A stretch of 64,000 bases of DNA from Chloroflexota bacterium (GTDB lineage Bacteria > Chloroflexota > Dehalococcoidia > DSTF01 > RBG-16-68-14). Below, piece by piece: positions 13,800 through 60,740 of the stretch. Positions within the stretch are counted from its first letter, which is position 1. Each line of letters starts with the position of its first letter. The notes beneath the pieces were generated by a model. That model searched no databases. It saw only the letters and a program-made list of their open reading frames with translations, and was not told where the DNA came from. The stretch is taken from positions 130,146 through 194,145 of the forward strand of contig JAJCYW010000021.1 of NCBI GenBank assembly GCA_029262675.1, written 5' to 3'. The translations under genes were made by a program, and so were the position numbers.

Positions 13800-14237
13800 C
13801 TAGGCAACGCAGAGCGACACGGTGACGTCCTTCTCCGTGAATGAGGAGTGGCGGTTGTCGAAGTCGAATCTATAATTGCCGCGAACCGTCCCGACAACCT
13901 CAAACTCAAGCTCGTGGGCACGATCGGTCTCGAACTGGACGACGCGGTTGGTCGGCGACCAGATGCTGAAGCCGATGTCCTGGCTATCGTTACCGGAGAC
14001 GCTGAACGTACCCGAGATCGTCTTGCCCTTCGGCACGTTGTAGAGCCACTGGCCCAGCGACCGTGCCTTAACAGAGAAGCCGATGTCTCCGCACTGTTGG
14101 CCGCCAGCCGTCGCCGCCAGCTCTGGCGCTCCGCCCAAGGTGACCGTCGCCGTTCCCAACTGACGATACATCAAGTAGCCCACGGACGCGCCCGCCGCCA
14201 GGATGGCGAACAGCGTAATCACGATCAGCTTCTGCAC
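13800..14237 (-). CDS. Hypothetical secreted or membrane-anchored small protein (N-terminal hydrophobic helix, beta-rich C-terminus)
   Basis: MQKLIVITLFAILAAGASVGYLMY... It is the last gene of the co-directional archaellum block. No family assigned. Confidence 0.35.
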   Translation of the reverse strand: MQKLIVITLFAILAAGASVGYLMYRQLGTATVTLGGAPELAATAGGQQCGDIGFSVKARSLGQWLYNVPKGKTISGTFSVSGNDSQDIGFSIWSPTNRVVQFETDRAHELEFEVVGTVRGNYRFDFDNRHSSFTEKDVTVSLCVA

Positions 14238-20100: not shown

Positions 20101-20601
20101 CTAGATGCTGAAGAACGATGCCGCTGAGATGCCGAGCTCGGTCGTGACCTGCAGCCAGTGACTGCCGGCTCCGGCCGCGGGGCCGAGCTTGGCGCGGATG
20201 GTCATGCTTTCGCCGGCGTTGAGCACACGTGGATCGATCACGTCGTTGTCGATCGAGAGGACGCGCCAGCTGTTATCCGGCTGCGGCGATGTCACGGTAG
20301 TGAAGTCCAGGTACGTGTTGTAGGTGGTGCTGGCAGCCGTGTACTGAATCAGCATGTCTACCTTCGAAAAGTCGACGACAGCGGTCGCTCCGTCGTTGCG
20401 AACGACGACATCGATATCGGCGCCGCTGACGTTTATCGACGTGATCGAAATATCGCTGCGCACGCGCTCGACGCTCAGCTCCTCGGCGTCCTGCCAGGAG
20501 TCGCTCAGCGTGCGGAACGAGCTGAACCCGCTGCGCCCCAGCATCAGCGAGGCGATGACGAGGATGGTTACAGCCAGGAGCGCGGGCAGGACGCTATCCA
20601 C
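20101..20601 (-). CDS. arlG: FlaG/ArlG-like archaellum protein (N-terminal transmembrane helix plus beta-sandwich)
   Basis: GTG start after GGAGGGGA. MDSVLPALLAVTILVIASLML transmembrane helix then a beta-rich domain. The position after the FlaF-like gene matches the archaeal flaF-flaG-flaH order. Confidence 0.5.
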   Translation of the reverse strand: MDSVLPALLAVTILVIASLMLGRSGFSSFRTLSDSWQDAEELSVERVRSDISITSINVSGADIDVVVRNDGATAVVDFSKVDMLIQYTAASTTYNTYLDFTTVTSPQPDNSWRVLSIDNDVIDPRVLNAGESMTIRAKLGPAAGAGSHWLQVTTELGISAASFFSI

Positions 20602-20613
20602 AGATCCCCTCCA

Positions 20614-21057
20614 TCACAGCGTGAAGAACTTGGAGTCCTCGACGCCGTTGGCGGCGACGACCTTCAGGTAGTAGGTATTGCCCGTCGCAAGCGCCGTCGT
20701 AACGTAAATGGTGATATGCAACGTGGCGGTGGGGTTCCACTCGGTATCGTTCTCCAGCGTGTACTCCCAACACGGCGCCGTGCAGCTCGCGCCGCCGTAC
20801 GGGATACGCTGGAAGTCCGTCTCCGGCCCGAAGAAGACGTCCGACTGCGTGATGGCGCTGATGCGCGTGGCGCCCGTGTTCTTCACCCAGGCATCGGCCT
20901 GCGTCGCGGTATCCTGGCCGATGGCATGAATGATCTCCACGCGGCTGCTGAGCCGATCGTCCGCGACCTCTGCCGACGACACGAGCGCCGTGCCGGCTCG
21001 GCTGATGGCCGGCATCAGCGCCGTAATCACGGAACCGATGGCAACGATGGCTGCCAC
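20614..21057 (-). CDS. arlF: FlaF/ArlF-like archaellum protein (N-terminal transmembrane helix plus beta-sandwich). The true start may be an upstream non-AUG codon, extending to about 21090.
   Basis: Transmembrane helix AAIVAIGSVITALMPAI, then a beta-rich domain with a CTAPCW motif. The in-frame upstream sequence IEKSIATILLTV directly follows AAGGAGAG and has no ATG/GTG/TTG. Confidence 0.5.
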   Translation of the reverse strand: MAAIVAIGSVITALMPAISRAGTALVSSAEVADDRLSSRVEIIHAIGQDTATQADAWVKNTGATRISAITQSDVFFGPETDFQRIPYGGASCTAPCWEYTLENDTEWNPTATLHITIYVTTALATGNTYYLKVVAANGVEDSKFFTL

Positions 21058-21119
21058 GGTGAGCAGGATGGTGGCGATGGACTTCTCGATGTCAGTCTCT
21101 CCTTAGGGCCGGGACCGGG

Positions 21120-22091
21120 CTACCGCACGCGGCGCAGGCGGGCTCCCCGCCTGCGTGGCAGCCTGATCACGCGCTCTCCATGCACGATTGCGTCCAACTG
21201 ACGCAGTACGACAAGACACTCATTTACGCTCACCGGCACGTCGTCGCCGGGATCGTCGTCGCCGGAGTTGTCCAGTTCGGCCAGGAACTCCCGGGCCTCA
21301 TCGGGTAGCAGCTCCGCGAACGCTGCCAGCTTGAGAACGAAGCGGTACCTGCGGGGGCCGAGGGTCGCCAGCGCCTCCTCCGCCCAAACGGCCAGTCCAG
21401 CGACAGACGCAAGCGTCCACGTCTGCTGATCATTACGTTCCGGCTGTCGCGCGCGTGCCGGCTGTCGTTGTCCGGCCGGACGTTCCGTCGTAGCGGGCGC
21501 GTCCTCGTACTCGTCTACTGCGGCGTCTTCGCCGATTTCAGCAGCCAGTTCCGCTGTCTCGTCTGCATCCAGCTCCTGCGACGCGACGGGCCGTGAGGCG
21601 CCGGCCGGCGATGACTGCTGGCCGGGAGCCCCCGGGTAGCGGATGATGTTGGTCACGGCCGGCGCTGGTGGCTGCATGGGCGCGGCCGTCGACGGCATCG
21701 GCGCTGGCGGCTGTACCGGTGCGGCCGGCGGCGGCATCAGCGTTGGCTGCTGGACCGGCGGGCCCTGCGGCGCTGGCGCGAGCGACGGCATCGCGGGCGC
21801 GACGCCGCCCGCCTGCGCGGCCATGGGCTGTGCGGCGGGCGCCCCGCCAAACGTAGGTATTGCAATAGACTCGACGCTCGGTATTTCTAGAACGCGCTTG
21901 GGCCTGGCCGGTTCTTCGTCTGGCTCTGCGAACTGCGTGGGCCGGGAAGACGTTGGAATGGTGGTATCGGCGGAGAAGGGGTTGTCCTGGGACAACACGG
22001 CGGTACGGATCTCCTTCAGGACAGCCTTAATCTCGCCCTTAAGGAGCTTAACCTCATCCTGGAGCGTCGCTACCTGACTGTTCAGTTCCAT
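21120..22091 (-). CDS. Coiled-coil and proline-rich protein at the FlaCDE/FlaX position of the cluster (function unknown)
   Basis: N-terminal heptad-like MELNSQVATLQDEVKLLKGEIKAVLKEIRTAVL, a long Pro/Ala/Gln-rich linker, and an acidic C-terminal domain. It lies between the archaellins and the FlaF-like gene. Confidence 0.35.
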   Translation of the reverse strand: MELNSQVATLQDEVKLLKGEIKAVLKEIRTAVLSQDNPFSADTTIPTSSRPTQFAEPDEEPARPKRVLEIPSVESIAIPTFGGAPAAQPMAAQAGGVAPAMPSLAPAPQGPPVQQPTLMPPPAAPVQPPAPMPSTAAPMQPPAPAVTNIIRYPGAPGQQSSPAGASRPVASQELDADETAELAAEIGEDAAVDEYEDAPATTERPAGQRQPARARQPERNDQQTWTLASVAGLAVWAEEALATLGPRRYRFVLKLAAFAELLPDEAREFLAELDNSGDDDPGDDVPVSVNECLVVLRQLDAIVHGERVIRLPRRRGARLRRVR

Positions 22092-59416: not shown

Positions 59417-59592
59417 GTGCGGGCGTCCTGCTCCAGAATGTTTGCCCGAGTGTACAGAAACGCTATCGCCACAACAAGGAGCGCAGCAGGCCGGCGGCCT
59501 CCAGAACCAGGATGCTGTTGCGGATTAGAGAACCGAGCTGCTACGGCAGGCCACCATGCCGAGCTGCTATGGCAGGCCACTAGGCCGAGCTG

Positions 59593-60522
59593 CTATGGCA
59601 GCTCGATTCGCGACGTGTACGTGGAAGTGTCGTAGGCGAACCACATGTCGGCGCCCGAACTGCTGTCGACGATCAGCTTGAGCTCGAGCATGTCCGTCGC
59701 CGGCACGGTGTAATCAACTGCCGGTATGCTCAGCGTCTTCACCACCCAGGTCCCGGAGCCGGCCTGCCAATCGCTCTCCGTCAGCGACCCGCTGGCGATC
59801 TCTGTGTACGAAGCGCCGTCGTAATGCCGAAGGTAGACAGTGATGCTGCCGGCGACGCTCAGGCTGAAGTTCTGGATGGCGCTGGCGAGCACAACAGTCA
59901 CGTTGCCGTCGATCACCTGGTCAGCGGCGAAGGCCGACGTCCGCCATGACTGGTGCAGCGTCGTGCCGGTCTCCGCTGGGCCTGAGCCGCCAGCGGCGAT
60001 CAGCAGACCGGCGTCCGCGTCTCGATCGCTGTCGTAGTTGTAAAGCGTCGTTGCGGTGGAGAGCGTCTTGTCGAACGGCAGCAGCGTTTGCGACGCCGTG
60101 TCGCCCACGGGCGGCGAGGGGTTGTTGTGCAGATAGTAGCGCTCGACGCCCGGCATCGGCAGCAGGCCGGACGCCACCGCGCCATTCGAGGCGACGAACG
60201 TAAGCGTGTAGTGCGTGCCCATCGCCAGCGGCGAGGCGAGCTGCAACGTGACGTGGAGCGTGGCCCGTGGGTTCCACTCGACATCGTTCTCGAACTCGTA
60301 GCTCCAGCACGGCGCCGTGCAGCCGGAGCCGCCGTAAGGCAACCCTTGGAGCGCGCCGCTGGGGCCGAAAAAGACATCGCTGCGTTCCACCGAAATGATG
60401 CGGCTGCCACCAACGTTCTTGACCCAAGCCTCCACCTGCGTGCCGCCCGGTTCGCCCCAGACCTCGACGACATCCAGCAGCGTGCTCTGGCGGTAGCTAG
60501 CGCGGTCGAAGCCGGCGACCAT
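59593..60522 (-). CDS. FlaF/ArlF-like paralog with a roughly 170-aa C-terminal extension. An in-frame upstream transmembrane helix suggests a non-AUG start near 60627.
   Basis: EAWVKNVGGSRIISVERSDVFFGPSGALQGLPYGGSGCTAPCWSYEFENDVEWNPRATLHVTL aligns closely with the cluster FlaF-like protein (DAWVKNTGATRISAITQSDVFFGPETDFQRIPYGGASCTAPCWEYTLENDTEWNPTATLHITI). Upstream in-frame: IDKSITTVLLVVAIVIGIGL after AAGGAGG. Confidence 0.5.
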   Translation of the reverse strand: MVAGFDRASYRQSTLLDVVEVWGEPGGTQVEAWVKNVGGSRIISVERSDVFFGPSGALQGLPYGGSGCTAPCWSYEFENDVEWNPRATLHVTLQLASPLAMGTHYTLTFVASNGAVASGLLPMPGVERYYLHNNPSPPVGDTASQTLLPFDKTLSTATTLYNYDSDRDADAGLLIAAGGSGPAETGTTLHQSWRTSAFAADQVIDGNVTVVLASAIQNFSLSVAGSITVYLRHYDGASYTEIASGSLTESDWQAGSGTWVVKTLSIPAVDYTVPATDMLELKLIVDSSSGADMWFAYDTSTYTSRIELP

Positions 60523-60740
60523 GACGCTGCCCGAGCGGCCGAACGCGGGCGTGATGAGGTTCGCCGTCAGGCCGATGCCGATGACAATGGCGACGACCAG
60601 CAGTACAGTAGTGATGGACTTGTCGATGGCGCGGCCTCCTTGCCCCGACGCGGCCAGCGTCGGAAGCTACTACTAGCATGAACGCTCGTAGCGTGGCGGC
60701 AGCGCAGTCCGAAAACGCCGATTAGGCTGGGGAAAGTCCC

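Follow-up and report, generated by a model that had tools for sequence, protein, structure and literature searches.

The archaellum of Chloroflexota is already known from published work (PMC12488501; preprint 10.1101/2025.02.02.636118), and the same source mentions a 'duplication of arlF' in some members of the phylum. For L. aerophila, a 2026 study of the cell envelope proposed PilN/PilO-LysM as the anchor, with PilO-LysM adjoining the arl cluster, and stated that anchoring in Chloroflexota without PilN/PilO-LysM 'is unknown' (PMC13319060). A study of Thermoplasmatales that lack an S-layer found no special motif in ArlF (PMC12448462). How a horizontally acquired archaellum is fastened to the envelope of a bacterium is a gap that has been pointed out explicitly. 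Here, an additional arlG-like gene (arlG2) was analyzed in a stretch of 64,000 nucleotides from a Chloroflexota bacterium of the class Dehalococcoidia (positions 130,146 to 194,145 of contig JAJCYW010000021.1, assembly GCA_029262675.1), which is referred to as the window in its entirety. The product of this gene (P0001) combines an ArlG-type N-terminal region with a C-terminal jelly-roll domain (C-domain). In the texts consulted, which include PMC13705601, neither a jelly-roll on ArlF or ArlG nor an ArlG paralog encoded away from the cluster was found to be described (supplementary tables may list such genes), and the terms ArlF, ArlG, stator and anchor are absent from PMC13747009. Stator proteins that carry a domain of the wall-binding type, some of them encoded inside arl operons, provide concrete and testable anchor candidates. 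Approximately 244 arl-positive genomes of Chloroflexota have been published.

In S. acidocaldarius, ArlG (FlaG; 5tuh, 5tug and 6pbk) is the periplasmic stator filament protein of the archaellum. ArlG2 has in common with it a hydrophobic helix followed by an immunoglobulin (Ig)-like beta-sandwich as well as a predicted contact to ArlF, but differs in an extra jelly-roll of 181 aa, the location away from the arl operon and the bacterial host. A lineage-specific Cys pair (CTAPCW) is found where FlaG contains SSPYW. With the cluster ArlG of its own genome and order, ArlG2 shares 43-45% identity over the full ArlG length, an ATC start codon, the Shine-Dalgarno spacing and 27 invariant columns, whereas a long stem in the tree (0.7), the C-domain and a single-gene insertion site set it apart. 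The C-domain has the fold of PepX_C (PF08530), the galactose-binding-domain-like jelly-roll of X-Pro dipeptidyl peptidases and CocE/NonD hydrolases, and some members of the C-domain family pass the Pfam cut-off. In contrast to PepX_C, the family occurs without a hydrolase domain, is found on surface proteins and carries its own HNNPxPP / YNYDxDRD signature.

Identity, start codon and origin of arlG2

In the list of open reading frames (ORFs), the minus-strand gene extends from an ATG at 60522 to the stop at 59593 and encodes 309 aa. Upstream of this ATG, the frame remains open for 35 further codons, which encode a hydrophobic helix and are preceded by three stops in a row. When the extended product was compared with cluster gene 20614..21057 by BLASTP, the alignment was ungapped with 63 of 147 residues identical (43%, E 5e-47), and 45% identity over residues 1-158 was obtained by tblastn when both genes were read from ATC. 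Hence, the cluster protein is matched over its full length. A first-pass annotation of this DNA had reported a similarity over 95 aa, which is real but too short, as approximately 160 residues match. The near position-for-position alignment that it described, including the CTAPCW motif, was reproduced, and the transmembrane helix that it saw in the upstream in-frame sequence is part of the gene. The invariant columns were counted in an alignment of 21 paralog and ortholog sequences, and together with the ungapped alignment they rule out low complexity as the source of the similarity. Residues ~164-344 form an extension without a counterpart in the cluster copy. This extension is not of low complexity, contains 23.8% Ser+Thr and is rich in beta-strands in an AlphaFold2 (AF2) model, in agreement with the earlier description of a Ser/Thr-rich, beta-rich region of roughly 170 aa. 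The distance between the paralog and the cluster gene was measured as 38.5 kb, close to the 38 kb given before, and these two copies were the only ones found in the assembly, which comprises 3.42 Mb in 21 contigs and is 92% complete. The paralog DNA and its start region were found to be identical in contigs of three biofilm metagenome runs that belong to a single study, and the window itself may derive from one of these runs.

The label 'FlaF-like', under which the gene had been described, did not hold. A sequence search of the Protein Data Bank (PDB) with the paralog (phmmer) returned S. acidocaldarius FlaG as the sole family (5tug/5tuh/6pbk; 5tug_A with E 3.7e-9), whereas FlaF (4p94, E 5e-7) was matched by the adjoining cluster gene 20101..20601, which also scored 31.3 bits with the Pfam FlaF_Ig-like model (cut-off 28.4). 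PF22201 (FlaF-type Ig-like) gave no match in P0001 or in cluster gene 20614..21057, and BLASTP of the paralog against the cluster ArlF was not significant (E 1.6). The AF2 model of the paralog, built from a 44-sequence alignment, reached a mean predicted local distance difference test score (pLDDT) of 85.4 and a predicted template modelling score of 0.66. With this model, Foldseek retrieved FlaG (5tuh) with E 4e-9, TMt 0.89, a root-mean-square deviation (rmsd) of 2.1 and 28% identity, and FlaF (4p94) with E 4e-6 and 16-18% identity. A VIA structure comparison against 48,161 chains likewise gave Z 15.9 for FlaG (rmsd 2.3, 104 aligned residues, 29% identity) versus Z 14.6 and 18% identity for FlaF. 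NCBIfam provided nothing for P0001 at E<=1, including the ArlG equivalog NF052591 (cut-off 110 bits). The curated ArlG and ArlF models are uninformative for this lineage because the cluster copy itself barely scores (22.2 bits with the ArlG model, and 22-23 bits over the ArlG and ArlF models, against the cut-off of 110). The genes of the cluster follow the order arlB-arlB-(323 aa)-arlG-arlF-arlH-arlI-arlJ, and an arlG-arlF order is described for the arl2-type clusters of Chloroflexota (PMC12488501). By eye, no class III signal-peptide cleavage motif was seen at the N-terminus of the paralog. These searches indicate that the paralog and cluster gene 20614..21090 are both ArlG/FlaG-like and that 20101..20601 encodes the true ArlF. 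The proposal of a duplicated FlaF with a new C-domain was correct in that a gene of the stator type was indeed duplicated and gained a new domain at the C-terminus, but the gene in question is FlaG/ArlG.

Between the upstream stops and Met36 of the paralog, no ATG, GTG or TTG is present, and 60627, which the first-pass annotation gave as the boundary of the gene, is an ATC codon. In the cluster arlG, a TAAGGAG sequence and a spacer precede an ATC at 21090 that is followed by the conserved residues IEKSIATILL, and the distance from the Shine-Dalgarno sequence to the ATC is 7-8 nt in both copies of the window. In 16 relatives that belong to the order of the window (L096-L111), the codon of residue 1 of arlG is ATC (9), ATA (5), GTG (1) or ATG (1). 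Most of them carry a Shine-Dalgarno-like GGAGG/GGGGG just 5' of this codon, and an in-frame stop is often located just five codons 5' of it. Three distant arlG genes of Dehalococcoidia have ATG or GTG at the homologous codon, and the neighbouring arlF starts with ATG in all 13 relatives in which the match begins at residue 1 (14 usable rows; in L105 the match begins at residue 18 and the projected codon is GTG). This pattern argues that arlG starts at an AUH codon in this order and that the paralog inherited it. Because ATC or ATA occupies the homologous codon in 14 of the 16 relatives, the helix of the paralog is most probably translated. Automatic annotation misses the ATC/ATA starts and shortens arlG in this order, and truncated database entries (P0002 with 309 aa; P0004-P0006) exist for the paralog; the gene starts are corrected here.

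The origin of the paralog was analyzed in a maximum-likelihood tree (midpoint root) of 27 ArlG-type N-domains. These were taken from the two copies of the window, from 16 relatives and three distant arlG genes, and from six database proteins of which only the N-domain was used. P0001 and its database orthologs P0003-P0006 form one clade (support 100/100) on a stem of 0.7 changes per column. These orthologs contain both domains without breaks and are 64-85% identical to the paralog across the two. The clade is nested within the ArlG clade of the order (99/99), and its exact place inside is moderately supported (90/65, 89/86). By this topology, the paralog arose through duplication of the order's own arlG. 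Recent foreign acquisition was considered and ruled out, as both the GC content of the paralog (0.651 versus 0.645 in the window) and its GC content at third codon positions (0.86 versus 0.82-0.88 in neighbouring and arl genes) are host-like.

The nuoF-like and mutS genes that flank the paralog are adjacent in a genome of the same genus (G411, locus L112, 207-nt gap) and in one of the same family (G418, locus L116, 85-nt gap), and the spacer of G411 aligns to both paralog flanks (window region 59417-60740). The paralog can therefore be described as a single-gene insertion of ~1.2 kb in a housekeeping intergenic region. G411 shows neither arlG nor the paralog. In G421 (L113), the gap between the nuoF-like gene and mutS is filled by unrelated ORFs of 215 aa and 94 aa. 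Scans with P0001 yielded eight loci but no full-length ortholog among metagenome contigs, and one broken ortholog fragment (L032) among genome contigs. At the 3' end of the paralog, tandem repeats of 26 nt each form a 7-8-bp hairpin with a CAUA loop, and no T-tract follows them. The fold of the repeats was computed at -39.2 kcal/mol (z -2.35). A genome-wide element of the repetitive extragenic palindrome type was rejected as an identity for these repeats, which occur in three local copies only at <=1 mismatch genome-wide. They might be a 3' stabiliser of the mRNA or a trace of the insertion event.

The C-domain and its protein partners

The C-domain was modelled as a beta-sandwich with pLDDT >90. 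In the VIA comparison, its matches cover model residues 158-344 and include 8yzn (Z 17.2, rmsd 2.6, 160 aligned residues), PepX 6nff (Z 14.2), 4pf1 (Z 14.1) and CocE 3i2f (Z 12.6), so that the best-scoring folds are the C-terminal non-catalytic jelly-rolls of CocE/NonD/PepX-type hydrolases. Carbohydrate-binding modules (CBMs) were matched within the background range (CBM15 with Z 8.8, CBM6/CBM4 with Z 7.3-7.5). The predicted fold is that of a superfamily common to carbohydrate-binding modules. Pfam gave no match in the C-domain of P0001, including PF08530 at E<=1, and this model was weakly matched by two of the 44 members of alignment A1. Three relatives lie above the PF08530 cut-off of 22.5, namely P0106 (39.1 bits), an ORF of locus L012 (29.7 bits) and P0109 (25.6 bits). 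The ESM Atlas returned only unnamed clusters for the paralog (at 0.94).

A HMMER scan of 1.84 billion representatives with a 185-residue domain query assigned 702 clusters to the C-domain family at E<=1e-3; of these, 426 remain at E<=1e-10 and 123 at E<=1e-30. Among the matches listed, protein lengths vary between 127 and 1418 aa, and up to four copies of the domain occur in one protein. Near-invariant positions include L-H-N-N-P-x-P-P, the acidic loop Y-x-Y-D, W228, L-R, E-x-K and Y-D-T. A Ca2+ site is suggested by the DxDRD loop. The domain is sparse, as it was detected in only seven of 401 sampled genomes of the phylum, and the copy in the paralog is the sole one in its genome. Its N-terminal partners are short SipW-type leaders (ALFTD-like), N-methyl pilin leaders, FN3 domains, Ser/Thr/Pro-rich linkers and ArlF/ArlG-like domains, with SipW-type leaders being the majority partner in Chloroflexia, Limnocylindria and Actinomycetota. 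Overall, the C-domain is a module that surface-fibre systems use outside the cell.

Genes for a single C-domain behind a SipW-type leader were seen to adjoin, in the same direction, camelysin/TasA-like (Peptidase_M73) genes at L063:8519-10606, L070:5211-10681 and L031:8716-10549, an arrangement that suggests a fibre locus in Chloroflexia and Limnocylindria. At L017, a single C-domain gene is located beside a pseudopilin with N_methyl and Laminin_G_3 domains. In L042 and L048 and in the pseudopilin-like proteins P0085, P0086, P0088 and P0093, the two ends of the C-domain occur in reversed order (BLAST query residues 303-344, then 156-283), as would be expected if the domain had been circularly permuted or partially duplicated in tandem.

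Hidden Markov models built from the ArlG and ArlF proteins of this order were used to type the N-domains of C-domain proteins. Among 235 collected proteins, 47 have ArlF-like and six ArlG-like N-domains, numbers that are a lower bound in a collection skewed to relatives of the query. Fusions of an ArlF/G-like N-domain to the C-domain were found at ten of 64 genome contig loci (L010, L011, L012, L014, L015, L019, L020, L023, L026 and L067), two of which, L020 and L026 from other Dehalococcoidia, have the fusion inside an arl cluster. In L026, a response regulator, a kinase, arlB, a 216-aa gene and arlG are followed after 7 nt by a 571-aa ArlF-like protein with two C-domains (P0032), and a short arlF is absent from this locus. 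The L020 cluster consists of arlB, a 265-aa gene, arlG, arlF, an opposite-strand ORF pair, a long form with two C-domains, arlH, arlI and arlJ. One in-frame stop is present near the 5' end of the long form, and this gene copy may be decaying. The two ORFs of the opposite-strand pair (L020:8547-9719; 214 and 172 aa) resemble an insertion-sequence transposase by eye. P0032 and the long form share with ArlG2 the C-domain family (40-50% identity) behind a stator-type Ig domain, but they have an ArlF-like N-domain, two C-domains and a place in the arl cluster, whereas ArlG2 is ArlG-like, has one C-domain and is dispersed. For the typing of P0032 as ArlF versus ArlG, the PDB sequence search was uninformative, and hhalign against alignments A2 and A3 was confounded by the C-domain rows present in both.

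Two other ArlG-C-domain proteins, P0031 and P0034, group with the ArlG clade of L020 and L026, apart from the paralog of the window. Because they fall in a different ArlG clade, ArlG would appear to have acquired the C-domain at least twice, besides the ArlF fusions, unless the fusion is ancestral and was repeatedly lost. A homolog of ArlJ was detected in seven of the ten fusion genomes versus seven of the 401 genomes of the phylum sample; as the fusion genomes are mutually related, this comparison does not amount to a statistical test. In L025 (7038-11587), two ORFs that look like transposases by eye truncate the 5' part of a gene for a C-domain protein, which is located 45 nt 5' of an isolated ArlG-like gene. 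The latter encodes 164 aa and matches Pfam Arch_flagellin with 41.5 bits, and arlH, arlI and arlJ are absent within 10 kb.

Proposed role of ArlG2 in anchoring the archaellum

A complex of the cluster ArlF (residues 35-166, 16-row alignment) and the Ig domain of the paralog (residues 45-160, 21-row alignment) was modelled. It reached an ipSAE of 0.76 in three of three runs, while the best of three controls reached 0.19, with a contact agreement of at least 91% and a pLDDT of at least 89 for the partners. The mark for such models is reached by 116 of 157 solved complexes and by two of 215 mismatched pairs, and is only a rough guide here as custom alignments were used. The modelled interface includes the invariant residues W68, K70, G73, E113 and T123. 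According to this model, the paralog keeps an ArlG-like contact surface for ArlF, which by itself does not demonstrate binding, and the test is also passed by close cousins of true partners.

We favour, with about even confidence, a role of ArlG2 as an accessory subunit of the stator, which would bind to ArlF/ArlG and link the motor with a polymer of the envelope; the docking, the ligand and an effect on torque are what we infer. The helix would reside in the membrane and the ArlG domain would dock into the periplasmic stator via the surface that ArlG uses for ArlF, or would join ArlG filaments. The jelly-roll would grip a rigid component of the envelope, which could be peptidoglycan, a wall polysaccharide or an outer protein layer, and would supply the fixed point that the S-layer provides in archaea. 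S-layer mutants of S. islandicus are reported to assemble archaella that give no propulsion. In MotB, the C-terminal OmpA-like domain is the peptidoglycan anchor, and ArlG2 would act by analogy to this domain, which fixes the flagellar stator. MotB, PilO-LysM and ArlG2 have in common only this proposed logic of a stator or alignment protein with a wall-binding domain; their folds and families are unrelated and binding by the C-domain is putative. Peptidoglycan is a plausible target, and the genome contains a near full-length MurG match (235.8 bits, just under the cut-off of 250.25). The first-pass annotation had raised the idea of an alternative envelope anchor. Indirect support for it comes from the same C-domain being fused, apparently independently, to ArlG-like and ArlF-like proteins, from the in-cluster ArlF-like fusions and from the jelly-roll fold that resembles carbohydrate-binding modules.

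A broader and more tentative proposal is that archaellated Chloroflexota repeatedly fused the HNNPxPP jelly-roll, as an envelope-anchoring module, to stator proteins and thereby created a new class of stator adaptors. The class would include ArlF-like proteins, often with a doubled domain and sometimes inside the cluster, and at least two fusions to ArlG. In that case, ArlG2 and its relatives would be the missing link through which a rotary motor of archaeal origin gains a hold on the wall of a bacterium, and would exemplify the adaptation of a machine after cross-domain transfer.

Several observations weigh against a role of ArlG2 in the stator. The gene does not adjoin arlF in an arl operon but is sited 38 kb from the cluster, amid housekeeping genes, between the nuoF-like gene and mutS. 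In a promoter and terminator scan at the paralog, the single promoter-like site lies on the opposite strand, none was detected on the strand of the paralog, and no terminator was found. The FlaF-FlaG complex is already solved (5tug, 6pbk), and the success of the complex model may reflect mere likeness to it. To our knowledge, no ligand is known for the hydrolase-type jelly-roll domains that were matched best. In the phylum sample, all six other ArlJ-positive genomes lack the C-domain, and ArlJ is absent from all six other genomes that have it. Among 61 relatives, an ArlG-like match was found in 41 and a C-domain in four (G000, G451, G430 and G417), of which G417 is without an ArlG match. Three of the ten fusion genomes, which may be incomplete, gave no match for ArlJ. 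Most C-domain proteins are unrelated to arl genes and have SipW-type or pilin leaders and camelysin/TasA-like neighbours. Archaella do not generally require the C-domain, and the module is at most an optional accessory.

The alternative that survives best, although we regard it as rather doubtful, is a stand-alone surface protein without a role in motility. The ArlG helix and Ig domain would then serve as an anchor or short stalk that displays the jelly-roll as an adhesin or as a binder of external polymers or biofilm neighbours. Such a function would fit the unlinked gene, the predominance of non-arl surface proteins (SipW-type and pilin leaders, FN3 domains, Ser/Thr/Pro-rich linkers) among C-domain carriers, the ArlJ-negative fusion genomes together with G417, and the biofilm origin of the metagenomes that contain the paralog DNA. 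It is countered by the conservation, despite the long branch, of the invariant core of ArlG and of the residues predicted to contact ArlF, by homologous fusions inside arl clusters and by the higher share of ArlJ-positive genomes among those with fusions than in the phylum sample.

Improbable in our view is a further possibility, in which the C-domain is a fibre or fibre-accessory module and ArlG2 nucleates or anchors the fibre in a role like that of TapA. The single C-domain genes beside Peptidase_M73 genes (L063, L070, L031) and beside the N_methyl and Laminin_G_3 pseudopilin (L017) would agree with it, as would the ability of ArlG itself to form filaments in archaea (PMC13319060). However, the genome encodes no second C-domain protein from which a fibre could be built, and no camelysin-like or SipW-type gene was seen beside the paralog.

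A decaying or silent duplicate, whose full-length product is not made for want of an ATG, GTG or TTG before the helix, is the least likely explanation: it could appeal to the missing canonical start 5' of Met36 and to gene callers that give truncated forms (P0002, P0004-P0006), but an ATC/ATA start behind a Shine-Dalgarno sequence is usual for cluster arlG in the order, the window's own copy included, the frame is intact over 344 codons, the orthologs keep both domains unbroken and the codon usage is host-like.

Coordinates and neighbouring features

Table 1. Positions of arlG2, its parts and the related cluster genes in the window
Feature	Coordinates	Strand	Remarks
arlG paralog (arlG2)	59593..60627	minus	344 codons and TAG stop; ATC start at 60627-60625
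Shine-Dalgarno sequence AGGAGG	60635..60640	minus	7 nt 5' of the ATC start
N-terminal hydrophobic (transmembrane) helix, residues 2-22	60562..60624	minus	AF2 model; aligns with N-termini of arlG orthologs
ArlG/FlaG-type Ig-like beta-sandwich, residues ~47-160	60148..60489	minus	phmmer, Foldseek and VIA
CTAPCW Cys pair, residues 103-108	60304-60321	minus	within the Ig-like domain
PepX_C-like jelly-roll (C-domain), residues 164-344	59596..60138	minus	opens with YYLHNNPSPPVGDT; carries the NYDSDRD loop
Three tandem 26-nt repeats, GC-rich hairpins	59533..59602	minus	first repeat overlaps the last codons and the stop of the paralog
Cluster arlG (158 aa), parent-type copy	20614..21090	minus	ATC start at 21090-21088
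Cluster arlF (166 aa), predicted docking partner	20101..20601	minus	Pfam FlaF_Ig-like; PDB FlaF match; complex model

Two further genes of the arl region were recorded. The 323-aa gene between arlB and arlG (21120-22091, minus strand) has no Pfam or NCBIfam match. A coiled-coil-like stretch at its N-terminus recurs in the 265-aa gene that takes the corresponding place in L020 (L020:6761-7558); the 323-aa gene may encode the protein of the ArlX/ArlCDE position. At the far end of the arl region, a 145-aa protein (13800-14237, minus strand) combines an N-terminal helix with an emp24/GOLD domain (Pfam E 2.1e-10).

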